Below, piece after piece: positions 3,768-64,000 of a DNA stretch of 64,000 nucleotides. Source of the DNA: Eledone cirrhosa (taxonomy: Eukaryota); assembly GCA_964016885.1 (NCBI GenBank), contig OZ024742.1:312232001-312296000 (forward strand), read 5' to 3'. The notes beneath the pieces were generated by a model. The model worked only from the letters and a program-made list of their open reading frames with translations, had not been told where the DNA came from and did no database searches. Positions within the stretch are counted from its first letter, which is position 1. Each line of letters opens with the position of its first letter. Both the position numbers and the translations under genes were made by a program.

Positions 3768-5990
3768 ATATAATTCAAGCATGTTTTACAACGTGAGGAC
3801 CAGAAACAGGAGGTATTCAAGATTGCGAGGCAGTGTGTCAGAGATAGTTGTGATGTCATTGGAGAGAAGTGTATCCGGAATGATAAAGGTGAGCTTGCCC
3901 TCACAAGTGCTGAGAAGAAAGATGCATGGAAGAGTCATTATGATAGATTACTAAATGAGGAGAATGCATGGGAAGAAGAGACCCTACCCCAAGTAGACCC
4001 TATAGAGGGACCAGCAGTACAAGTCAGCGGCAGCGTAGTAAGTAAGGCAATCAGAGATATGAAGATGGGGAAGGCAACCGGTCCATCGGGTATAGCTGCC
4101 GAGATGCTGAAGGCATCTGGGTCTGTAGGTCACACTATAACCACACGTATCGTTAACCAGGTAATACTAGAAGGGGCCATACCAAAAGATTGGTGCAGTA
4201 GCATCATTGTCAACTGCTACAAAGGCAAAGGCGACGCACTAGATAGAGGAAACTATAGAGGTATAAAGTTGATGGACCAGGTCATGAAAGTAACAGAAAG
4301 AGTTATAGCACAGCTGATTAGGGACCGGGTGAATATAGACGAGATGCAATTTGGGTTTGTACCAGGAAGAGGCACCACTGATGCCCTCTTCCTTGTGAGG
4401 CAATTACAGGAAAAGTACCTAGCTAAAAGTAAGCCACTCTACTTGGCATTTGTCGACCTTGAGAAAGCCTTTGACAGAGTTCCACGTGCTGTAATCTGGT
4501 GGGCTCTTAGAAAACTAGGAGTAGATGAATGGCTTGTGAAAGCGGTACAAGCCATGTATAGAGGAGCAGTCAGCAAAGTTAGGATTAGCAATGAGTATAG
4601 CGAGGAATTTAGCGTACAGGTTGGGGTCCACCAGGGCTCTGTTCTTAGCCCTCTCCTGTTCATCATAGTCCTGCAGGCAATAACGGAGGAATTTAAGACC
4701 GGATGCCCATGGGAACTCCTGTATGCTGATGACCTCGCACTCATAGCTGAATCTATGATAGAACTAGAGAATAAATTCCAAACCTGGAAGCAGGGACTAG
4801 AGAGAAAGGGTCTCAAAGTCAACATGACAAAGACTAAGGTCCTTGTAAGTAGACGAGAAAACAGAACCCAGATCCCCTCAGGGAAATGGCCTTGCTCAGT
4901 ATGTAGGAAAGGTGTAGGTAGGAACTCCCTTCTCTGCCCCAAATGCAAACAATGGGTACACAAGAGATGTAGCGGGATCTCAGGAAGCTTAATTAAGAAT
5001 GTAGGATTCACATGCAGCAGCTGTGCTGAAACAGCAAGCAGCAAACAGCCACAGGAAACAAGTACCACCAATCTCTGGGAGGGCCCTGTAGAAACAGTAG
5101 ACAGCTTCTGCTACCTAGGTGACCGAATTAGCAACGGAGGTGGGTGTTCAGAAAGTACAATAACTAGGGTAAGAACGGGATGGAAGAAGTTTAGGGAACT
5201 ACTACCACTGCTAGCTGCAAAAGGCTTTTCCCTCAGAATGAAAGGCAGACTGTATGATGCGTGTATCCGAACATCGATGTTGCATGGTAGTGAGACCTGG
5301 GCGCTGAAGGTGAAAGACTTACGTAGATTAGAGAGAAACAAAGCCTGCATGCTCCGATGGATGTGTAACAGTAATATACGTGAACGACAAAGTATAAATG
5401 AATTGAGAGAGAGACTGAGCATAAGAGGAATCAAATGCTGTGTGCAGGAGAGGCGGTTGCGCTGGTATGGACATGTGATGCGTATGAAGGATGACAGTTG
5501 CATAAAAAGGTGCAGAGCACTAGAAGTTGATGGAAACCGCGGAGTGGGGAGACCCAAGATGACCTGGGATGAGGTGATAAAAGCCGACCTTACCCAATTA
5601 CACCTCTCAAAGACAATGACACACGACCGTGACTTCTGGCGTCACGCAGTAATACAGAGTACCCGACCTCCCATGGGTACATGCTGAAGCATATAAACAA
5701 TATGCCCCCACACCCCCCACCGCAAGGTGGTCGTGGAGGTGCCACGGCAAAAAAGCACCCAGCCCACACTGTAAAGTGGACGTGTAGGCGCCACGAAAAA
5801 GCACCCAGCACTCACTGTAAATGAGGTTGGTGTTAGGAAGGGCATCCAGCTGTAGAAATCAAGCCAGATCAGTTCCTGTATGAGCAAGGCATGGTCAGCC
5901 GACCAGACACTGCACACAACAGGACAACCCGTCTAACCCATGCTAGCGTGGAAGAACGGACGTAAAACGGTGATGATGACGGTGATGATG
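3768..5990 (+). mobile_element. 5'-truncated RTE-clade LINE
   Basis: RT ORF, (GAT)n tail at ~5970-5990 and an 8-bp TSD ATATGACA at 3760-3767 and 5991-5998. Confidence 0.92.
3774..5687 (+). CDS. RTE reverse transcriptase (partial; endonuclease lost by truncation) with inserted PHD-like finger
   Basis: Frame open from 3774 (first Met 4059); motifs NYRGIKL, QFGF, AFVDLEKAFDRV, GVHQGSVLSP, YADD, YLG, HGSETW, LRWYGHV, GRPK..W. Confidence 0.93.
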   Translation, partial: FKHVLQREDQKQEVFKIARQCVRDSCDVIGEKCIRNDKGELALTSAEKKDAWKSHYDRLLNEENAWEEETLPQVDPIEGPAVQVSGSVVSKAIRDMKMGKATGPSGIAAEMLKASGSVGHTITTRIVNQVILEGAIPKDWCSSIIVNCYKGKGDALDRGNYRGIKLMDQVMKVTERVIAQLIRDRVNIDEMQFGFVPGRGTTDALFLVRQLQEKYLAKSKPLYLAFVDLEKAFDRVPRAVIWWALRKLGVDEWLVKAVQAMYRGAVSKVRISNEYSEEFSVQVGVHQGSVLSPLLFIIVLQAITEEFKTGCPWELLYADDLALIAESMIELENKFQTWKQGLERKGLKVNMTKTKVLVSRRENRTQIPSGKWPCSVCRKGVGRNSLLCPKCKQWVHKRCSGISGSLIKNVGFTCSSCAETASSKQPQETSTTNLWEGPVETVDSFCYLGDRISNGGGCSESTITRVRTGWKKFRELLPLLAAKGFSLRMKGRLYDACIRTSMLHGSETWALKVKDLRRLERNKACMLRWMCNSNIRERQSINELRERLSIRGIKCCVQERRLRWYGHVMRMKDDSCIKRCRALEVDGNRGVGRPKMTWDEVIKADLTQLHLSKTMTHDRDFWRHAVIQSTRPPMGTC

Positions 5991-6850: not shown

Positions 6851-6954
6851 TTGCGACCGATAGATAGTATTAGCAACAATTGGAAAGACCAATGGAAACA
6901 TTGTTTCCTCAGTTCGATTTGATGAAAGTCGATCGACTGTCATATATATATATA

Positions 6955-7110
6955 TATGAAGTATTCAGGATCCCGATCGCTGAGCTCCTGCAGTTTTAAC
7001 AGCTATTTTCGAACTGTTAAAATGACAGGAGCTCAGCCTTTGGGGTCACGAATCCTTCATATTCTACACTCTACTATCCCAAATATTGAGTACTCTGGTG
7101 AGTAATGGTC
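6955..7110 (+). repeat. Palindromic repeat family: ~107-bp hairpin plus conserved ~50-bp flank
   Basis: 6955-7061 is self-complementary; a second copy lies in the opposite orientation at ~55910-56085. Confidence 0.8.
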
Positions 7111-7131
7111 TAACAGATTTTTATTGCATCC

Positions 7132-7171
<40 letters not shown>

Positions 7172-7211
7172 TCACCACCACTTAATGTCCATTTTTACAC
7201 ATTAATATGGG

Positions 7212-7250
<39 letters not shown>

Positions 7251-8089
7251 GTCAATACTCATCTTTTTCCATTTATCTGAGGGTTCTAAACCCCATTATC
7301 AGACTAAAATTTCTTTAGTCAAAGATACGGTGAAAGCTATTCTATTTTCTAATTTTAAACCTGCTCACTGTTTCAAAACATACTTACTTGCGATATATAT
7401 ATATATATCTGAATGGATGCAATAAAAAATCTGTTTTCAAATTGATATAATTTCATATATTAAATTTTGTATTATATATATATAATACAAAATTTAATAT
7501 AATATGAAATTATATCAATTTGAAATTCCCAACTATCCTTGCAACTGGTTTAAAAAATAACAGGGTAGTTGAATGGGTGATAGGGGAAAATTTGGGATTG
7601 CACAGCAACTTTGGAAAATATACTGGTGTGTTGGCATATTTATTGGTAAGAATGGTTTTGGAGAGAGGAAGGATGGTATGGAAGATAACCATAACAACAA
7701 ATAGAGACAGTGATGGTAATAATAGTGGTGGCTTTTGTGATTCTAGTAGTAGGTCAGTGGTCAGTGTTTGCTCAGTAAGTGCTTTTCTTTAGCTAGCGCT
7801 CTCTCTTACTCTTTCACTATCTATTTCTCTCTCTCTCGTTATCAATATCTATGTATCTTTCTATCTGGCAAAACTAGAGTGAGTCATCATTTCTAAGGAG
7901 ACTGGGAGATAAAGCATGGCTGGACCTGATTGATCAGACAGACTCTTGGACACAACAGCAGCAGTGACAGCAGCAACATAGATGAAAGATGGTGGTGATT
8001 GTAGTAAAAGAGATGAGGACAGATAGCCAGGAGAGTGATAGTGAATGACAGAGGGAGATAGTGAGAAAAATATATATAGGGAATGACAA

Positions 8090-8142
8090 TTATATATATA
8101 TGTGTGTGTGTGTGTATGTATATATATATATACATACATATA

Positions 8143-8174
<32 letters not shown>

Positions 8175-9830
8175 CACACACACATATATGTATGTATATA
8201 TACATACACATATATACATGTGTGTATATATATACACACACATATATAAATATATACACGCATATATATATATGTATGTATACACACACACACATATATA
8301 GTGAGAGTAAGAGAGTACACTGAGCAATGGACAAGACAAAGACACATGCAATAAAAGTTTGTGTGGCTGTATCAGAGAATTGTAGAGATAAGAAGGAGGG
8401 TGAGGGAGTGCAGAAGGTAGCACTTGCGGGGTGGATGGGTGGGAGTTGCATGGTCAGGAGGAGTAGAATAGTAAGGTAAAGGATGGGGGGGGGGGGGGCG
8501 TGGGGGAGAAAGATAGAGTTTGATATGGCTAGGACTGTGGGGAAGTAAAGAAGACAATGGTGGTGTGATGGTGGTGGTGGCAGTGAGGAGGGGGCTGGTG
8601 TGGTGAATAGCCATGATGGTGGTGGTGGTGAGAGATGAATAGTCATGGTGGTGGTGGTGGTAGAGGTAAGGAAGATAGTGTAGACATACATACATATATA
8701 GGTACATATGCACATATGGCAATATATATCTATATGTACATACATACATACATACATACATTGGTACATACATACATACACTACATCCTAGATGGTCAAT
8801 ATCCTAGATAGTAAAGAAGGTGATAGTGGTGATATGGAGGGGGGGGGGTGCAAGACCATGAAGTAGTAAGGAAGATGGTGGTGGTGGTGAGCAGTTAGAT
8901 GGTCAGAATTGTAGAATAGTAGGGGGGAGATGGTGGTGGTGGGGATGGGGTCCAGGTTGGATAGTAAGGCTGATGGTGCTTGCTGGTGGGGTGTATGAAG
9001 GTTGGATGGTCAGAATGGTAGGGTAAGGTGAGGGAGATACTGGATGATCAGAATAGTGAAGTGCTAGGGAAATTATCATTAGAGTTAATGGTGGTGGTGG
9101 TGGAGGCAGTGGTAGTAGTAGTAGTTGTAGTGGCGGTGGTAGTAATAGCAGTAGTAGTAGTAGTAATAGTAGTAATAGTAGTGGTGGAGGCAGCAGCAGT
9201 AGTAGTAGTAGTAGTAGTAGTCTTAAAAACAACAAATGAGAGAGAAAGATAGAGAATACATAGTGAAAGTTATGTTTGTTTGAACATGCATGTATGCAGG
9301 TGTACGTCTGTGTGTGTGTGTGAGTTTACATGTGGAGGGTGTAAGTATGGGAGGAGACCTATGAGGGTGGTGTAAGGTTAGTGAGAGGTGAGTGTTAGTT
9401 GGAGTATAGGATGGATGTGTATGTGTTCTTGTTTGAAAATAGATAGAGAGAGCTTAAAGCTGGGGGGGGGGGGGGATAAGATAGATAGAGACAGAGAGAG
9501 AGAGGGATAAGATAGATAGATATATAGATAGACAGAGTATAAAGTAGAAGACTGGGGAAAACAGAAAAGATAGGGAAAAAGAAAACAATGCTTATATGTA
9601 AACCTATACATTTATAATACACACATATATAAATACACACACATATCTGGACATACATCTATCGGTATACACATATAGATACATACATCTATAGATATAT
9701 GCATATAGATACATACATCTATTGATATACAATATATGTCGGTACTTATATATGTCTCTAGGCATACACACATATATACTATACACATGTATAGGTACAT
9801 GTGTATACACATATACATATACAAACCACT
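8090..9830. repeat. Low-complexity block: (TA)/(CA)/(TG), (GGT)/(GTA), (GATA) microsatellites
   Basis: Seen directly; the overlapping ORFs are simple-repeat translations. Confidence 0.9.
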
Positions 9831-32240: not shown

Positions 32241-32302
32241 ACAGCATGGATAAACCCAAGGCTACGGTAAATGACACTTGCCCAAACACTAATTTAATAG
32301 AG

Positions 32303-32765
32303 TGTTTGTGTAGGTGTCACGACGAAAAAAATCACCCAGTCCACACTGTAATGTGGTCATGTAGGTGTCACAACAAAAAAGCTCCCAGTCCACACTGAAG
32401 AGTGGTCGTGTAGGTGTCATGACAAAAAAGCACCCAGTCCACACTGTAGAGTGGTCATGTAGGTGTCACGACAAAAAAGTACCCAGTCCACACGGTAGAG
32501 TGGTCGTGTAGGTGTCACGACAAAAAAGCACCCAGCCCACACTGTGAAGTGGTCGTGTAGGTGTCACGGTAAATAAGCACCCAGTATGCACTATAAATGA
32601 GGTTGGTGTTAGGAAGGGCATCCAGCTGTAGAAATCCAGCCAAAATCAGTTCTGTATGAGCATGACATGGTTGCCTGAACTGCCATTGCCCACAACAGGA
32701 CAACCCGTCTAACCCATGTTAGCGTGGAAGAATGGACGTATGATGATGATGATGATGATGATGAA
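32303..32765 (+). mobile_element. RTE-dependent non-autonomous element: six 49-bp units + GGAAGGGCATCC box + tail A + (GAT)n
   Basis: Unit starts at ~32303, 32353, 32402, 32451, 32500, 32549; the rest is colinear with 5820-5990. Confidence 0.88.
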
Positions 32766-35700: not shown

Positions 35701-36000
35701 AAAAAAGAATGTGAATGAGTGAAAACAATTAGTAAATTATGTGAACATTTCACACTTTTTATACTAAACTACCTGAAACTACATATGGTTCAACAATACT
35801 TTAAACTGCTTATATTTATTTAAAAACTTCCCATCACAATTTTATGTAAAAAAAAACACCAAAACCCAGCTTAATAATGAGAAATTTAATTATTTTATTA
35901 AATCCCCCCAACAAATAAATTTATTCTAACCCTTTAGACACTGGCCCTACTGAAACCATTCTTAATTTTACAATACAATACTGTATTATAAAATGTTTAT

Positions 36001-36193
36001 CATCATCACCGTTTTACGTCCATTCTTCCATGCTAGCATGGGTTGTCCTGTTGTGGGCAGTGTCTGGTCGACTGACCTTGTCTTGCTTGATTTCTACAGC
36101 TAGATGCCCTTCCTAACACCAACCTCATTTACACTGAGTGCTGGGTGCTTTTTTCCGTGGTGCCTACACGTCCACTTTACAGTATGGGCTGGG
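36001..36193 (-). mobile_element. Short insertion of the module + tail A into a family-B MITE
   Basis: TSD TGTTTAT at 35994-36000 and 36194-36200; the empty site AAATGTTTATATTTATCT is seen in the paralogous MITE near 38210. Confidence 0.85.
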
Positions 36194-36889
36194 TGTTTAT
36201 ATTTGTCTAAAAACTTTCCATCATAATTTTATGTAAACACCTTAGTTAAGTTATGCTCCAAGCACCAGATTAATGATGAGAAATTTAATTATTTTACTAA
36301 ATCTTTCCAAATTCTTAATTATTTTCAAAATTATTAAAAGTATTTATAGACAGTGTCTTCCATTAAGAATATAGTAACAAAACAAGTTAAACCTATAATC
36401 TAATTCTTGGTCCACTTCTCTATATATTTGCCAATAAAACTATTATGGAGAGATTCAAGACTATCCCCTATCACTGATGTAAGTTCCAGACCTGGAAGGA
36501 AGGATATTCAATCAACAGGCATGAAGAGAAAAATAAGAAAAGCAGCCAAAAATATGGTTTTATTCAACACAAATAATAATTAAGAACTCTCTACCATGCA
36601 ACAAGCAGTAATATGGGCTAAAGATGGTACATCTAGTAGAATGAACTGTGTGGATTAGAGCTAGCTGTGACAAACTAGTGTCCTCTAATGTCCAGTGGTC
36701 TTTTAGTTAAAGTAATTTGCATTCATCATATAGGAGGTATGTATGCTGACTATATGTTGTTTTATAGTTTATAGTAACTTGTCTTGAAAAAAATTCAAGA
36801 CTCAGGAAAAACTAGTATAATTTATGATAGATCTTAATATATGTGTGTGCGCACGCGCATATATATATATATCCATTACCATTAAAAGG

Positions 36890-36974
36890 GGTCTGACGAA
36901 CCGCGGATTACAGAGTCAGGTTAGATCGATACAGATTGAACCTTGAGCTGATCAGTGGCGAAACGCGCGTCACC
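36890..36974 (+). ncRNA. Type I hammerhead ribozyme (Penelope-type, palindromic helix III)
   Basis: GGT-CTGACGA (36893-36899) - helix II hairpin (36900-36959) - GAAA-C-GCGC-G-TC (predicted cleavage after C36971) - ACC; AATAAA follows at 36979. Confidence 0.8.
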
Positions 36975-37027
36975 AACCAATAAACGTAATGAAGGAGTAA
37001 CCAATCGTCCTTGTTATTTTATTTCAC

Positions 37028-37116
<89 letters not shown>

Positions 37117-37284
37117 AGTGGTGCTGAGAGGGGTTACAAATCTCTTCCTTGCCAGACAAACCACAACAGAAACACAAACACTCCATCGCAACTTTACTTT
37201 TGAAAATCATAAGAACTGTGAAACTGGTAAAGTCGATAAAAATAAATATTCTAAAAATATTCCAGTTGTATTTTCAATTTCTTT

Positions 37285-37319
<35 letters not shown>

Positions 37320-40081
37320 TTATTTGTGTGTGTGTGTGTAGAATAATATATCCAGTTTAGTTTCGGTATAGTGTATTCCTGCATATCATAAGAGGTGACT
37401 AAAAGAGTTGATTCCAGGAGAGACATCCGATAATAAAACATTACTTGAAAAAGGACCCCATGAAGAGTATGATTAAGCCAGTTACAGAGTCCCACAGAGC
37501 TAAACCCTACTTTAACACGAAAAAATGGCCTTAAAACGCTTGTTGTAGTGTTACTGGTTCTTTGTGCTGATCAAATGTGGCACATGTGAGAGCTCTTCAA
37601 GTGTTTCTGCATTGTTTTCATTTCTTTGCCATGTCTTATAAGTGTGCTGAGAATGTTACACAAGTGTTGTGTGTAATTCTAGGTATTTCCTCAGTATATA
37701 TGTGTTATATGTTTATGTTATATATGATAGTTGGTTGGATTTAATGTTTTCTAACATAGCTGGTAAGAAGGGAGATGGTGGTTTTGGCAGATGCTTTTTG
37801 CCTATTTATCTGTAGTTGAAGATTTTTTTTTTTTTTAGTGGTTGAAGTAGGGGCTGAAAGAATTGTGCAAAGATGTGATTATGATGTTATCAGCATATGA
37901 GGTTATGATGTTTCTGCATATGAGTGAGGTTATGTATGTTTTGTAGAAGTGTTAGTAGGTTGGGTAGAGAACATGGGTGTAAAGATAAATCTCTATAGAA
38001 CACTGTTTGGGTTATTACAGGATTCTCTAAGTATTGTTATTTTGTTACTTAGCAACCAGCAGAGAGTTTACTAGCCAGTGTGAGCAAGTAATGGTGGTGG
38101 TGGTGGGATTTTGGGGGACTGGGGGGTAGGGGTAGTGAAACCAAAAGAAAACAAAATTATTCTAACGTCTGACACCATTCCTGGTTCTACAATACAACAC
38201 TTATTATAAAATGTTTATATTTATCTAAAAACCTTCCATCATAATTTTATGTAAACACCTTAGTTAAGTTATGTTTCAAGCACCAGATTAATGATGAGAA
38301 ATTTAATTATATTACTAAATCCCTCCAAATTCTTGATTATTTTCAAAATTTATTTGAAAAACATGGGCAGCGTGTCTAGCACAAGAAATATGATCAGAAA
38401 TATGTTAAGCTGAATATGTTGTTGCCATTTAGTAGGAAGACTGCCCAGATTGTGTGGACTTATGGTAAAAGACATTCCAGGTGTGACAATCCCATATTTG
38501 TTTTCAGAGACAGTATTTTTACCATTACAGTATCCAATGTGTAGTGGCTTAGCAAGCTTTATTCCCTCAACGCTTCAGTCCACACAACTGACAAAAAATA
38601 GTTATACTTGTAATTCAAATTGTCATGCTGAATCTCCCTAAGAACTATGTTAGGGCACACATGCCTGTGGATTGCTCAGCCACTTGCACATGAATTTGTG
38701 GAAGCTGCTCCAATATAACTGGAAAATTTGTTATCAGAACAAATAGAGGGCCAAACACACATTACTCAATGTAGAGAATAATGTATTGTAAAGTAGAGAG
38801 GGATATAAGGGCAAATATCTAGAGAGAACTGTAGTGTCATGAGGGTATAAATGGAAATGAAAAGAAAATGAATAGAAGCCATGTCTTGACCAGGAGATGC
38901 TTGAAGAGAGAATGAGAGAGAGTGAGTGACAGGGGGTTAATCTAGGGAGAGAATAGGCAGTGTCAAGGAGGAAACTGCCATAGGATGTGATGATTAGAAA
39001 GAAGGAAAGAAGGAAAGAGAAGCAGAGACCATCATCATCATCATTGTCATCATCACTGTGACATCTGTGTATAAATATGCTAACATGTGTTAGAAGAGAA
39101 TAAAGGATCAAATAGAAAAAAAATAAAAAAAAACAAAGCAGATGAGAATAGACAAGCCTGACCAAGGGAAACAAACATAAGCAATTCAAATAAATGACAG
39201 TGCCTTTCACATACCCCACACACCTCACACCACTGTATCATCAGTACCCTCTTTATCATTTGTATCCACCCCTCTTAATTGCTCACCTGCAGGCAGGACA
39301 GTAGCTAAGGACAGTGGAAATGGAAGGAAAGAGTTGGGAATCAAAAATCCAATATTTATAGCCCCATCTACACACACACACACACACACACACAATACAC
39401 TGAGTATTTAGTCATCAGTTTATTTTAATTTATATAGCTATTTACTTACCTGTGTTTATCTGTATCTTTTTCTTTACTAATACAGGTGTGTGTGTGTATA
39501 TATATGTGTATGTATGTGTATATATGTATGCATGCATATGCTTGATGTATGTATGTATTTATATCTTCTTATGTATGCATATATCTATCTATACAGTATG
39601 GCTACTATGTATATAGGTATTTATCCCTATGAATATGTTTGTATGTACCTATAGATGTATATATCTATCTATTCATCTATATATACCTACATATGTCTAT
39701 GTATGTAGTGATTTATCCAGCTCAATGAATGAGGGAATGTACATGTGTATAGATCTATTTATCTCTATATATGTACGATATCTATGCATCTATCTCTTAT
39801 CTGTCTCTTCCTTTAAAGTTGCAAATGAATATATAAAGGAATTTCTCCAAACCTTTATTACCTCGTTAATCAGTAAGGTATTCAATTACATTTGCATCCA
39901 GTTTCTAAAGACACTCCAGTATTTCCTCAGCCTAGCTTAATTATAATCATCACCAGCACCATCACCATCAACAACAACACACACATACAGGCATACAAAC
40001 ACACACAACAATTGAAAAGAAGGTTAACTAAAGGCAGCCAGACAAACAAACAAAAAAATAGCAAAAAGAAAATGAAAGAGG

Positions 40082-40368
40082 GAGTGAGACACTAGAGGGT
40101 GAGGGAGAGTGAGACACTAGAGGGTGGGAGAGTGAGACACTAGAAGGTGGCATAGTGAGACACTAGAGGGAGGGAGAGTGAAACACTAGAGGGTGGGGGA
40201 GTGAGACACTAGAGGGTGGGGGAGTGAGACACTAGAGGGTGGGGTGAGACACTAGAAGGTGGGGGTGAGACACTAGAAGGTGAGAGTGAGACACTAGAGG
40301 GTGGGAGAGTGAGACATTAGATGGTGGGAGTGAGACATTAGAGGGTGAGAGAGTGAGACACTAGAGTG
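40082..40368. repeat. Minisatellite, ~21-24-bp unit GAGTGAGACACTAGAGGGTGG(G), about 13 copies
   Basis: Seen directly. Confidence 0.92.
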
Positions 40369-48032: not shown

Positions 48033-50464
48033 CGTGGTCCAAGTGGACCACCGGTGGTCCACAGAGAATTCGTAACCATAAAAAAATTGTAGCCATTTCA
48101 CAAAAATGTAACTAATATAATATTTTGTTTAATTACACACATATCCATTAAATTTGAAAATTTCGAAATTACGTAGGTATTATGCAGTGCTATATTTATT
48201 TATTTATTTTTTATTCATATAAAAAATGGTACTTGTAACGAATGTACGTACCGTGAAATCTTCTTCGTTGATAACTAAAACGGACAGACAGACAGACATT
48301 CGGCAAATTATAGTAAGATATTCAAGAGAATAGCAAAGACTCGGTACATATATCCGCCACAAGGACCCAAAAAATTATTCCTATGCTAATAGATCACTAC
48401 ACAATATTGTTTGATAATAAATTTGATATTTCTAATTTATAGAAATAAAGTATTTATTATTTTTTTTTTTTCATATCAGTTGTAAGAATGTCTGAACCAA
48501 CTGCTAAAAAGGCAAAACTGAGGAATTACACAGAAGATTTTATCATGTTTGGCTTTGTATCTGTAGACTCAAAACCTATGTGTCTTGAATGTGGTGCCAT
48601 CTTGACAAAACATTCCATGGAAGAAAGTTAAGCTGGAGCAGCACCAGAAATCAAAGCATCCATCATCTGTTGGTAAAGATAGGGAATATTTTGAGAATAA
48701 AAATATAAGTCAAACTATCCAACTTTGTAAAGAAGATGAATACTACAAAAGCAAAGACACTCAAACCAAGTTATTTGGTCTCTGAAATTATTGCCAAGGT
48801 TGCAGCACCTCAGGTTTATGGTGAGAAGTTTGTCAAGCCTGCTATGATAGGTTGTGCAAATGAGATTCTGGGAAAAGATGCTGCATCTACCCTGAGTACA
48901 ATTCCACTTTCAAATGACACTATTACAAGAAGACAGGATGAAATGTCTAATTTTGTTGAGGAGAAGATGGTGGAAATTCTGCAAAAGACAAAGTTTTCTA
49001 TCCAGGTTGATGAGAGCACAATTCATAACCAAGCTATCCTTCTGGTCTATGTCAGATTCATCCATGATATAAGGGAAGAAATGTTATTCATTAAAAGTTT
49101 GCCTGAAACTACTAATGGAGAAGATATATTCAATGAAGTAATGCAGTATTTTAATGATAAAAAATATTCCATTGACTAATTTGATCAACATTGCATCAGA
49201 TGGAGCTGCAGCCATGCCTGGAAAAGTGAAAGGCTTTGTTTCTAGAATGAAATCGGTTGCTCCTCACATCTTTTATATACATTGCATTATCCACAGACAG
49301 CATTTGGTTGCTAAGAATATTAGAGGAGACATGCAAGAAGCACTCAACACTGCCATACATGCAAATCAAACTCAGTGAATAATAGATTTTTTGTGCAATT
49401 CTGTGAAGATAAAAATTTAAAAACCCTATTGCTTCACACAGAAGTAAGATGGTTGTCAAAAGGCCTGAGTCTTGAAAGACTAGTGAATTTGTGGGAACCA
49501 TTAATCAACTTTCTCATGTTCAAATCCCAAATGACTCATTACAACTCCAAGAAGCAAGCTGATACAGCTAAGGAAATTTTGGAAAGACTTCCTGAGTTTA
49601 AATCAAAAATATTCTGATTGATATTTTTAAAACAGTGAATCTGCTTAACTTGGAGCTGCAAGGTAGAAGATCAGATTTAGTCACCTGTGCTCAGAAGATA
49701 AAAGGCTATATGGGGAAATTGAAATTTTGGAAAAAACAGTTTGAGAAAATTTTTTTAGCGTCATTTCAAAATGTCAACACCACTGCTCCTCCATCAGAAT
49801 GCATTGCCCATCTTCAAGGTCTTCGTGTAGACTTTGAGAGAAGATACAATGATCTATTAAAGATGGATTATCCACTCTGGTTTGTAGACCTAGAAAATTA
49901 TGAGCCAGGAGATGAAAATGTTGAGTTGACTGAAATGTTGTTGGACTTGAAAGAGAATGTAAAACTGAGAAGAAGAGTTGACAAAGAAGGTGTCTTTGCC
50001 TACATATCGATAAAGGACTCGCACCCAAATATTTTTCAACATGTAGAAGCAAGCATAATTTCTTTCCCTACCACATGGATGGTGGAATCTGGATTTTCAG
50101 CTGTTGTGGATGTTTTCAGTAGAAAAAGAAATAAATTAGATCTCAACAGCAGAGGAACTATCAGACTAAGACTGATTGACTTCATCAAAATTGATTATGA
50201 TATCTTGTGTCAGAAACACCAAGATCAAGGTAGTCACTAGCTGAATGGACTAAAACTGAATGACTTCATCAAAATTGATTTTGATATCCTGTGTTTATCC
50301 TTGTTTACTAAAATAAATTTTAAAGTGTAAATAGACTATTTTGTCTTTTCATTAAGTATTTTAGTGTGAAAATGGAACAGCTTAAAAGTAAAAGTAGGAG
50401 TGGTCCATTGGAATTTTTTGAAGAAAAAAATGGTCCATGGGCTGAAAAAGGTTGAGAAGCACTG
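48033..50464 (+). mobile_element. Buster-type hAT DNA transposon (decayed, left TIR mostly deleted)
   Basis: Right TIR GGTTGAGAAGCACTG; subterminal TGGTCCA repeats at both ends; TSD GTCTAGAA (48025-48032) / ATCTAGAA (50465-50472). Confidence 0.88.
48488..50240 (+). pseudogene. Buster/ZBED8-like hAT transposase pseudogene
   Basis: BED-like finger (PMCLECG...LEQHQKSKHP), PLSNDTITRR, FSIQVDEST, ASDGAAAM, HCIIHRQHL, HTEVRWLSKG, FPTTWMVESGFS; split by several frameshifts and stops. Confidence 0.93.
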
Positions 50465-57460: not shown

Positions 57461-58283
57461 TTTATAGAGGGTTAGTATGTCACAAGGGCGATAACATGCT
57501 CAGAAGACTCTAGGCGTCAAAGACGACAAACTCACCGGTCTGTTTGGTAGGACTTTCCGCCCGGAACCTATGGACAACTTCCAGAGGTCCCTGGCCTGGC
57601 AGTGCTACCGAGGCGCTCTACCAGTTCGTGACAAGATCAACAGGCACGGACGCCCCGGCAGGGATCCTTCCAAGAGGACGTGTCCAAGATGCGCGCAGGA
57701 CATTGAAACCGTCCTGCACGCAATTGTACACTGCCTGGGCGTAAGCGACCTGTGGAACTATGCAGAACAACTGTTGTCGCGTATGGGACAAATCCAGTTG
57801 ACCGCCGAGTCCATAGTAAGGATCAAACCGCCAACTTCTTTCAAAAACGAAAGAGAGGCGGTTTTCCTCTGTATAGTAGTGGCTATGGTGAAAGAGGTTA
57901 TATGGTGGATGAGATTGAGAGGACTGAGGACAGATGCCTTTCTCTCCGGACAACAGAGGCACTGCACCCCAGTAAATTTACTGAAAGGTGGGTGAATGTG
58001 GCAAAAATGGCCCGAGTGTTTGGGCCTTCTCTGTATATAAACCTGTAGGTTGAAGAAGAGAGCAAAAAGAAGAAAGGAGCACTTGCACAACACGCTCCTG
58101 AAGTTGAGGGTTGTACTATCGATGGGGTATTAAACAGCCCATTTGTGGCGCCTCCCCCCTATTGGGGATTTCGATTGTTATAATTGTTTGTTTTATATTT
58201 TTTTACACAATTGCATGTAAAATTCCCGGCATGTCTTTGTTTTTGTCCCCTTTTCTTGTGCGCCCTTGTGGCTAATAAAGAAA
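57461..58283 (+). mobile_element. 3' fragment of an L1/Tx1-clade LINE (zf-RVT region and 3' UTR)
   Basis: AWQCYRGALPVRDK...CPRC...ETVLHAIVHC..VSDLW (CCHC zinc-binding motif after RT); T-rich 3' UTR with AATAAA at 58274; CpG-rich. Confidence 0.85.
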
Positions 58284-58589: not shown

Positions 58590-58740
<151 letters not shown>

Positions 58741-61847: not shown

Positions 61848-62452
61848 TCAGGTCACCAGTTGGTGCTACTGGTAACATGTATCCCAGTACAACCTGTCTC
61901 ATGGTCGGGTCGTTGGCGACTAAACTGGCAACCCCACCAAGGTTTCTTGGTGAGGAGGGTGACTTTGGACATCCTGCAGGACTAAAAACAAAACCTGTCA
62001 AAGGGCAAAGGAGCTCTTAAGAGTCAATGGCCATCCAAAATCACCGGGAGAGATGACCGCTTAGCCTTTGTCAAGGCAGAATTCTAGGAGAAGGAAAACT
62101 GATATAACACCTGCAACCCTGATGGTATCCAATGATGTTGACTTGTTCTTCTTTTTGGTAAATATCACCTTGGTTAAGAGAGTGGGACTGGCTTTGTGCA
62201 GTGCCTTTGCTCACTATAAAAGCTTCACGGCACAGGCATTGCTTTATATCTGGAGATCTCTCTGCACTTGTCGTCACATGGTACCATGGGCCCAGCACTA
62301 TGTGTAAAAAATTGTCACAAGTGTAGTGTTTGTACCAGAGTTTTCAAGTCGCTGGCTGGACTAAAAAGTCACACTCGTTCAGCGCATTGGTAGGGGTTCT
62401 CCTACAGGGATATAAAGTAGTGGCCGTACTCGAAAACGAGTTGGCAGCCACC
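61848..62452 (+). mobile_element. Probable RTE 5'-UTR-derived non-autonomous element
   Basis: GC-richer non-coding block between TA repeats; contains CTAGGAGAAGGAAAACT (62084-62100), recalled from RTE 5' UTRs; no RT ORF follows. Confidence 0.45.
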
Positions 62453-62460
62453 ATATATAT

Positions 62461-64000
62461 CATCATCATCATCATCATCATTTTACGTCCGCTTTTCCCT
62501 GCTTGCAAGGGTGGGACGGGTCTTATTCAGCACAGCATCTCTCCACTCGTCACGGTCCCTCGTCATCTCCACCGTGAGCTTCAATGATCTGAGGTCTGTT
62601 CTCACCACCTCCGCCCATGTTTTTCGTGGTCTACCTCTACCACGTCTTCCTTCAACTGGCATTTCCTGGCACTTCTTCACCCATCGGTCATCCTCCATGC
62701 GCATCACATGTCCATACCACCTCAGTCTCCTCTCCCGTACACTACATTCTATCCCTCTCAGACACAGTTTCTCTCTCAACACATTTATGCTGGGTCGTTC
62801 ACGCACATTTACACTGCACATCCAACGGAGCATGCTTGCCTCATTTCTCTCCAGCCGTCGCATTTCTTCTGCGGTTGCTGCCCATGTCTCACTACCATGC
62901 AGCATCGCGCTTCTCACACAGGCATCATACAACCGGCCTTTCGTACGCAGGGAGAAACCCTTCTTCGTCAACAGAGGAAGCAGCTCCCTAAACTTCTTCC
63001 AACCCGTCCTTATTCTAGATACTATGGCCTCGGAACACCCTCCTCCCTAGGTACCGGAAGCTATCCACCACTTCTATAGCGCCCTCTCGCATTTGAAAAA
63101 TGTGTCTATCAGTGCGACTTCTACTGTCTAATTTCCCTGTACATCTACTGCATACATATTTCTCCCTACCTGTTAGTTTGCCTGCTATCCCGCTACATCT
63201 CTTGTGTACCCAGGACCTACATTGTGTGCATTTTATAGAATTTATGCCAGTTCCTTTTCTGCATATCGAACATGGCCATTTCCCTGACGGAATCAGGGTT
63301 TTGTCCTCTTTTCTACTCATCAACACTTTTTGTCTTAGCTAGATTTACTCTCAGTCCTCTTGCTTCCAACTGCTGTTTCCATAGCCGGAATTTATTCTCT
63401 AGCTCCTCTACTGATTCTGCCATAAGAGCCAGATCGTCAGCATAGAGAAGTTCCCATGGACAGCCAGTCTTAAACTCCTCTGTTATGGCTTGGAGGACTA
63501 TAATGAACAAGAGCGGGCTGAGGACCGAACCCTGATGTACTCCTACTTGTATCTGGAATTCCTCACTAAACTCCATTCCTACCCTGACTTTACTGAGAGT
63601 ACCTCTGTACAAAGTTTGCACTGTCCTTACAAGCCATTCCTCAACACCCAGCTTCCTTAGGGACCACCAGATGACAGATCGGGGTACCCTATCAAAGGCC
63701 TTCTCTAGATCAACAAAGGCTAAGTATAGTGGCTTATTCTTCTCTAAGAACCTCTCTTGCATTTGTCTCACCAAGAAGAGGGCATCTGTTGTACTCTTCC
63801 CAGGCACAAAACCAAACTGCATCTCATCTAGTTTGACCCTTTCTCTAATTAGTTGTGCTAAAATCCTTTCTGCCACTTTCATAACCTGATCTATCAGTTT
63901 TATACCCCTATAATTGCTCCTCTCCAAAGCATCCCCTTTACCTTTGTAGCAATTTATGAGAATACTGCTGCACCAGTCTTTGGGTATGACACCACCATAT
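62461..64000 (-). mobile_element. RTE LINE, frameshifted RT + PHD-like finger, continues beyond the window
   Basis: ORF pieces 63313-63927, 63015-63326 and 62483-62971 are colinear with the 4059-5687 protein; the stop codon is followed directly by (ATG)n on the coding strand. Confidence 0.94.

Follow-up and report, generated by a model that had tools for sequence, protein, structure and literature searches.

The window analysed here, a 64,000-nt stretch of Eledone cirrhosa DNA, carries at 36872..37029 a fragment that, from its identity to paralogues, we assign to the canonical-core subfamily A of a Hydra-type Penelope-like element (PLE), as a solo 5′-truncated pLTR. Its parts all lie on the plus strand and are described in the usual hammerhead numbering (C3, A9, 10.1, C17 and so on). 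The core box C3-A9 (CUGANGA; 36893..36899), which is canonical in this copy, is preceded by the 5′ strand of helix I (36890..36892), for which sequence and pair counts give 3 bp, or 2 bp in the most diverged subfamily. It is followed by a bulged, 60-nt helix II (36900..36959), delimited by folding and alignment, in which the 10.1-11.1 pair is A-C. The core G12-A13-A14-A15.1 (36960..36963) runs into an 8-nt palindrome (36963..36970) that, by sequence and folding, makes a 2-bp helix III in the monomer. C17 lies at 36971, with the cut predicted from the hammerhead numbering after it (36971..36972), and the 3′ strand of helix I, again from sequence and pair counts, occupies 36972..36974. A hexamer resembling a poly(A) signal, present in most copies seen, is positioned at 36979..36984. 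The core boxes, the palindrome, the 3-bp helix I and the long helix II are all located where a previous sequence-only reading of this DNA had placed them.

The element is flanked on its 5′ side by (TA)6 (36860..36871), the likely insertion target given that the ends of the family abut (TA)n, and on its 3′ side by (AG)43 (37029..37114), found by a repeat scan. The insertion site was likely the junction between the TA and GA repeats of a compound microsatellite, of which another, comparable and empty, lies at 58593-58739. The copy stops at the shorter of the family's 3′ termini, with the tail absent; no target duplication is readable at its ends, and no other pieces of the element were found within the window or 9 kb either side. 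The 157-nt element has a GC content of 43% and contains 10 CpG dinucleotides, compared with 591 in the entire window. Other interspersed repeats, matching many of the loci fetched, flank it at 35950-36250 and 37130-37270, and the segment 36024-36162 is repeated at 38041-38179. Elsewhere in the window there are minisatellites at 32298-32585 (49 nt, 5.8 units) and 40082-40366 (23 nt, 12.7 units), and LINE-type reverse transcriptase (RT) frames at 3774-5684, 62421-64000 and 57495-57992; one of them, of 637 aa, contains RVT_1 and a PHD finger, and the others are related pieces close to the end of the window and a fragment of zf-RVT. Two frames at 48709-50237, which we take to resemble a DNA-transposase remnant, gave no Pfam match at E 0.01.

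In the window copy the boxes C3-A9, G12-A15.1 and U16.1-H17 are all present in type I order, and three helices can be paired round the core, yet the best fold predicted is a different one. Taken alone, helix II (36900-36959) adopts nearly the pairing first proposed for it, at −19.3 kcal/mol and a z of −3.4 (1 of 500 shuffles equally stable), a value that is optimistic because the stretch was picked for its fold; z was only about −2 in three paralogues. Over its full 96 nt the motif does not exceed its shuffles in stability (z −1.25, 25/200), and in its best fold the core is paired with the 3′ strand and the hammerhead is not formed. A hand-built hammerhead monomer reached −18.3 kcal/mol against −26.0 kcal/mol for the best fold, a difference of 7.7, and the predicted probability of the A15.1-U16.1 pair in the monomer was 0.0. 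When the palindrome was blocked in silico the core opened, its unpaired probability rising from 0.31 to 0.75, and a duplex of two molecules through the palindrome, predicted at 8 bp, gave −13.3 kcal/mol. Because the monomer is predicted to misfold, the window copy likely does not cut on its own. The window copy also has A-C where G10.1-C11.1 is the rule, and a solo copy with such a closing pair is likely silent, as judged from these models. The closure of helix II by A-C, put forward earlier, holds for the window copy but not as a family trait: among the first 100 of 353 matches, tallied by eye, 90 have G at position 10.1, 9 have A and 1 has T. The Rfam comparison that had been suggested as a check did not recover the motif, since Hammerhead_1, a model of 45 positions ill-suited to a 60-nt helix II, gave 19.7 bits against a cut-off of 34 (E 0.27), and in a different register. 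That register employs an internal C8 look-alike at 36948, leaves a helix II of 1 bp and breaks C3-G8, and the look-alike was therefore discarded as a core candidate. At its tip (36923-36936) helix II contains a 10-nt near-tandem repeat that has been lost in some copies and gained in another (L032, L182, L185 and L194), so that arm length ranges from 50 to 70 nt.

The fragment belongs to a large family. In the 3.0-Gb genome, the 157-nt query yielded 2,190 candidates, and the 40 that were scored produced at least 50 matches at 83-100% identity, self included; the paralogues of the window copy are 83-97% identical to it. One 20-mer has 2,245 exact genome matches against 0 for the control, and patterns designed on sister subfamilies have 876 and 259 matches, sets that may overlap. 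In 519 genome copies the palindrome and a G at 10.1 accompany both boxes. The motif is not a product of chance, because it is common to a repeat family of thousands. The 5′ ends of the paralogues are ragged, and some paralogues continue through the 3′ UTR into a GIY-YIG frame. An inverted 5′ partner is present in 8 of 30 loci and a direct copy of another subfamily in one of the 30; the tandem dimers for which a search had been suggested were absent, with no tandem array in any of these 30 loci. Among 79 copies taken in order of position, 36 carry a tail of about 100 nt, and most of the tail-less ones share the end point of the window copy, in TA repeats. Two 3′ termini, separated by about 100 nt, occur in the family, and the majority of these 79 ends lead into TA repeats. 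Most family copies are short and solo, and 24 of the 79 are truncated within the motif. At locus L051 a truncated pLTR stands directly ahead of an open frame of 861 codons, accompanied by an inverted copy, and at L052 there are pLTRs at both ends with 4.8 kb between the hammerheads. The architecture typical of pLTRs (partial tandems, an inverted 5′-truncated copy, an optional tail) was encountered at these two loci and at others. The family is also present in contigs of three sequencing runs of unrecorded kind from one sample, which are uninformative on ends and expression and pointed to subfamily D. The distance from the end of the endonuclease to the pLTR (loci L032-L157) is mostly 0.8-1.1 kb in subfamily A, 1.15-1.5 kb in B and 1.75-2.3 kb in C.

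Two paralogues (L017 and L018) continue upstream into the GIY-YIG frame, and a search with this frame yielded 50,270 candidates, of which 150 were scored. Among eight long-frame loci that were fetched, the 861-codon frame of L051 consists of RT, linker and endonuclease and contains the RT aspartate pair and a GIY-YIG-like motif. By its sequence, the ORF is that of a PLE with a C-terminal endonuclease (EN+), RT followed by GIY-YIG. The linkage to a PLE ORF and the high copy number that the sequence-only reading wished to see checked are both present, as 2,245 exact 20-mer matches and as paralogues that run into RT and GIY-YIG. Canonical-core copies lie downstream of ORF pieces reaching residues 508 and 521 (L274 and L280); no uninterrupted subfamily A ORF was found among 16 extended loci, and no D or E copy tied to the family's own ORF was found in 80 loci scanned. 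Read by eye against the description of the clade (PMC8557442), the family ORF has DKT, not DKG, and a CxCX5C linker, ends with CxxC and CxH, and has neither CCHH nor a cysteine pair between GIY and YIG. The position of the N-terminal RWK reads LWR in L051 and RWR in L052, and the 4.8 kb of L052 exceeds the Hydra tendency to be shorter than 3 kb, which that source gives as non-diagnostic. Because the full 861-aa frame had no Pfam match and an ORF fragment matched GIY-YIG below the cut-off (E 0.0047), the clade call depends on these motifs read by eye, and Hydra membership is a motif match and not a phylogeny. A PDB sequence search gave no match. Of 8,000 database sequences scored, at least 50 are relatives at E≤1e-20, nearly all of them unnamed, and the best are 36-52% identical over parts.

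Other elements of related kind were met at these loci. At L051, a 539-aa open frame (6883-8499) that has a DKS motif and a long insert rich in asparagine, and for which Pfam returned nothing, probably represents another PLE clade; it occupies the place expected for the 3′ pLTR of the 861-codon element. At L056 a second Hydra-like family carries a canonical hammerhead with a helix II of about 38 nt, at 5591 and 7373 on opposite strands; the two form an inverted pair beside a 410-aa frame (ORF 4289-5518). Long arms may be common in the Eledone genome. Unrelated hammerhead-like motifs with a short or medium helix II occur at L024 (220-260 and 985-1020), where the motif is inside a 450-nt inverted repeat, at L044 (2513) and at L035 (331).

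The family corresponds in most respects to the Hydra clade as described by Craig et al. (2021, PMC8557442): it shares the order RT, linker and GIY-YIG, the DKT, CxCX5C, CxxC and CxH motifs and the absence of CCHH, as well as insertion at (TA)n, a type I hammerhead in the pLTR and inverted 5′-truncated copies. It differs in its 60-nt helix II, compared with about 24 nt or less in the 26 Hydra rows of File S2, in which a plant PLE-X row reaches about 53 nt and provides a long-arm precedent outside the Hydra clade (PMC8557442). It also differs in element length (about 4-5 kb, with a 3′ UTR of 0.9-2.3 kb, against <3 kb), in the tail (about 100 nt against 30-40) and in the LWR or RWR that replaces RWK, and the published cephalopod Hydra family carries a different hammerhead (PMC8557442). 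The core, moreover, is degenerate in the likely youngest Eledone subfamilies. With the minimal PLE hammerheads (Cervera and de la Pena 2014, PMC4209133) the family shares the type I form, a short helix I, a palindromic helix III, G10.1-C11.1 in most copies, a mostly solo occurrence and opposite-strand pairs. Unlike them, it has a bulged helix II of 22-23 bp, not 6-8 bp, and no extra nucleotide between A9 and 10.1; the core variant described for minimal PLE hammerheads is the compensatory U3-A8, whereas U4C and A6U of the Eledone family are non-compensatory (PMC4209133). The anole Poseidon element PAc (Frangieh et al. 2024, PMC11167929) likewise has two 3′ termini with an optional tail between them, AT-rich targets and a pLTR hammerhead, but it belongs to another clade, its ORF begins inside stem II whereas the Eledone ORF begins about 30 nt after the tail end, and it has been tested biochemically whereas the Eledone family is known here from sequence.

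Support for the long helix II was sought across subfamilies in 259 copies, retained from 359 matches after 100 that were duplicate, partial or without the core region had been dropped. The pair 36904-36955 is C-G in 175 of these, U-A in 57 and U-G in 17, and the pair 36902-36957 is U-G in 99, C-G in 90, U-A in 36 and U-C in 24. The base of helix II therefore covaries, and the named structure scored 0.121 against 0.097 for shuffled alignments (0/500), with a shuffle control that ignores kinship; the covariation amounts to about two events in one lineage. The 36902-36957 pair is unpaired in 10 of 38 rows, a set of mostly subfamily A copies showed no covariation, and RNAalifold, run on the cross-subfamily alignment, gave a fold other than the hammerhead, at −6.9 kcal/mol and with no covariation. 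We consider the base of helix II moderately supported; its distal part is without support. With the palindrome blocked, the base formed at P>0.5 in 12 of 29 A, 1 of 19 C2 and 4 of 4 B1 copies, from which helix II is predicted, by folding proxies that are noisy, to be lost in C2 and kept in B1. Alternative hairpins that bury the core are predicted in D and C.

The conservation of the CUGANGA box that the sequence-only reading had expected among paralogues is missing from most A, B and C copies, while the expected conservation of helix II pairing finds a counterpart in the basal pairs that covary across subfamilies. When the core was left free in the search pattern, the first 100 of 1,263 matches, tallied by eye, comprised 11 that keep the canonical box, 6 of a damaged A type and 83 of the U4C+A6U type or near it; the pattern excludes D and E. 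At the equivalent of 36893-36899, the box carries U4C in the older D and in A′ and U4C together with A6U in B and C. Unsupervised clustering without the core columns, on a mixture of biased samples, gave eight groups, with divergences of 11.7% for E, 7.8% and 6.9% for D, 6.9% for A0, 4.0% and 3.0% for A, 3.0% for B and 2.0% for C. At position 4, C is found in 41 of 63 older copies and in 87 of 97 B/C copies, whereas 94 of 99 A-type copies have U. The A at position 6 survives in 157 of the 162 older and A-type copies; in B/C, 95 of 97 copies have U there. At core positions other than 4 and 6 the majority letter is unchanged, with A13 invariant (259/259) and C17 a C in 251 of 259.

The order of the subfamilies was judged from divergence and from the endonuclease. 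In position-ordered samples, A diverges by 5.0% at non-CpG and 12.3% at CpG positions (n=30), against 2.9% and 3.8% in C (n=24; p about 0.001). Tail divergence is 5.4% in A and 2.8% in C2 (n=11 and 7, p 0.017); the comparison of A with B2 and C2 together was not significant (p 0.12). In an outgroup-rooted endonuclease tree, A′, then B, then C are nested inside A with starred support; it contains 19 family rows and six outside proteins on long branches. Three rows were labelled by hand, and duplicates, short pieces and rows whose core type was not known were excluded. B and C, likely the youngest subfamilies, are the most numerous and contain the longest open frames. The word "young", applied earlier to the window copy, holds only in a relative sense, given that its subfamily is more diverged than its degenerate-core sisters. 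From the core counts, the divergences, the tail and the endonuclease tree, we infer that A6U is derived and that U4 has toggled. A6U is, on this comparison of sequences, the sole clean derived change, and the canonical U4 of A may be a CpG-type reversion. The simpler idea that the canonical core is ancestral was dropped because the older subfamily D is mostly C4. Majority changes between A and C2 number 0 of 38 positions in the 3′ half and 26 of 193 elsewhere (p 0.01), with 20 of those 38 positions fixed by the way C was sampled; B-type loci, not so selected, show the same 3′-half letters by eye, and D and E differ there. The core changes of B and C are predicted to cripple the ribozyme. U4C and A6C variants retain low activity in other ribozymes, however (PMC3088659), so B and C may not be dead.

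Our preferred explanation, which we regard as very probable, is that the window copy is a solo 5′-truncated pLTR of a high-copy Hydra-type PLE, that its type I hammerhead motif has a helix II of 60 nt, and that the copy is likely inactive as a lone monomer. The earlier suggestion of a solo PLE terminal repeat with an atypically long helix II is in agreement with the ORF-linked paralogues, the pLTR architecture and the arm of 60 nt against about 24 nt. For its origin, we propose that the endonuclease nicked a TA microsatellite, and that reverse transcription started from the inner of two start sites and ended after about 157 nt. The start site is suggested by analogy with PAc, in which the tail sits between two RT starts (PMC11167929). 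In the parent element, slow cleavage might take place after C17, with a second pLTR pairing the palindrome into helix III and the element's protein probably acting as chaperone. Cleavage would need a second pLTR, and perhaps protein, because the monomer hammerhead is so far above the best fold, the palindrome can form a stable duplex between molecules and blocking it opens the core. Such a need fits the schistosome PLE, whose monomer is inactive and whose dimers are weak (PMC4209133), and PAc, whose cleavage needs protein and whose hammerhead mutants insert normally in vitro (PMC11167929). Over the history of the family, cleavage was probably weak and dispensable; U4 toggled, and A6U was presumably fixed afterwards in the B, C lineage, from which most A, B and C copies came.

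A bolder extension, which we hold to be possible rather than probable, is that one PLE lineage records the death of its ribozyme: the fold was kept by compensation, U4C and A6U were fixed, two other hairpins appeared and amplification went up. Since the substrate half is unchanged from A to C, it would either have taken on a new role as a structure that binds protein or still be cut in trans, through the palindrome, by canonical solo copies like the one in the window.

Alternatively, the hammerhead might have been non-catalytic throughout the sampled history, with the hairpin kept for protein binding or RT positioning and the U4 of A arising as a CpG-type reversion. The prevalence of C4 in the older D (41 of 63 older copies; 876 matches), the predicted hairpins that bury the core in D and C, and the dispensability of PAc cleavage in vitro (PMC11167929) would be expected if this were so. 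We nevertheless think that it is unlikely: C3, G5, A6, G8, A9, G12-A15.1, U16.1 and C17 remain the majority letters in the older groups as the columns beside them vary, a viroid tolerates U4C in vivo, and canonical copies occur in the most diverged group (cluster 1, with U in 14 and C in 10, partly selected for U). Another scenario is that the long helix II stabilises the fold, so that the window copy or its G10.1 form cleaves as a monomer and cuts host transcripts of the plus strand. It draws on the wholly canonical core nucleotides of the window copy, a helix II that is stable alone, the covarying basal pairs and the 519 copies with both boxes, G at 10.1 and the palindrome. The 3-bp helix I and 2-bp helix III, the core paired in the best fold, the zero probability of A15.1-U16.1 and the A-C mismatch at 10.1-11.1 nevertheless make it very unlikely, and no host exon was identified nearby, the four long frames scanned being transposon-like or of no assigned kind. 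Finally, a non-autonomous, retrozyme-like unit that amplifies itself through circular RNA with the PLE enzyme in trans, a possibility raised by the sequence-only reading, has on its side the short, solo copies (24 of 79 truncated within the motif) and a 2026 preprint that derives retrozymes from pLTRs (bioRxiv 10.64898/2026.07.22.740005). Non-LTR retrozymes also share with the family a short repeat bearing a type I hammerhead and a palindromic helix III, but the retrozyme scenario is scarcely credible given the lack of tandem monomers (0/30 loci) or of a fixed unit, the ragged 5′ ends continuous with the UTR and an autonomous ORF, and the inverted partners typical of PLE integration.

Viewed as a solo pLTR of a Hydra-type PLE, the window copy itself is an ordinary fragment. 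PLE hammerheads are known already; what the Eledone family adds is the long arm and the series of core variants. In a literature search that covered few subscription papers and no Repbase, neither the Eledone family nor an animal PLE with a 60-nt arm was described, and no PLE lineage with a decaying core came to light; given that scope, the silence is a weak sign that no such account exists. PLE hammerheads whose arms reach 60 nt would escape standard Rfam scans and descriptors built on short stems. The role of PLE hammerheads has been described as unclear, and they are possibly parasites (Craig et al., PMC8557442); the sole biochemical test is that of PAc, for which cleavage was dispensable in vitro (PMC11167929). 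The Eledone family provides an ordered allelic series on one backbone, canonical, U4C and U4C + A6U, with copy numbers attached. It is therefore a natural test of whether PLEs need hammerhead cleavage, in which a cleavage gel could reveal whether they spread without a working ribozyme.
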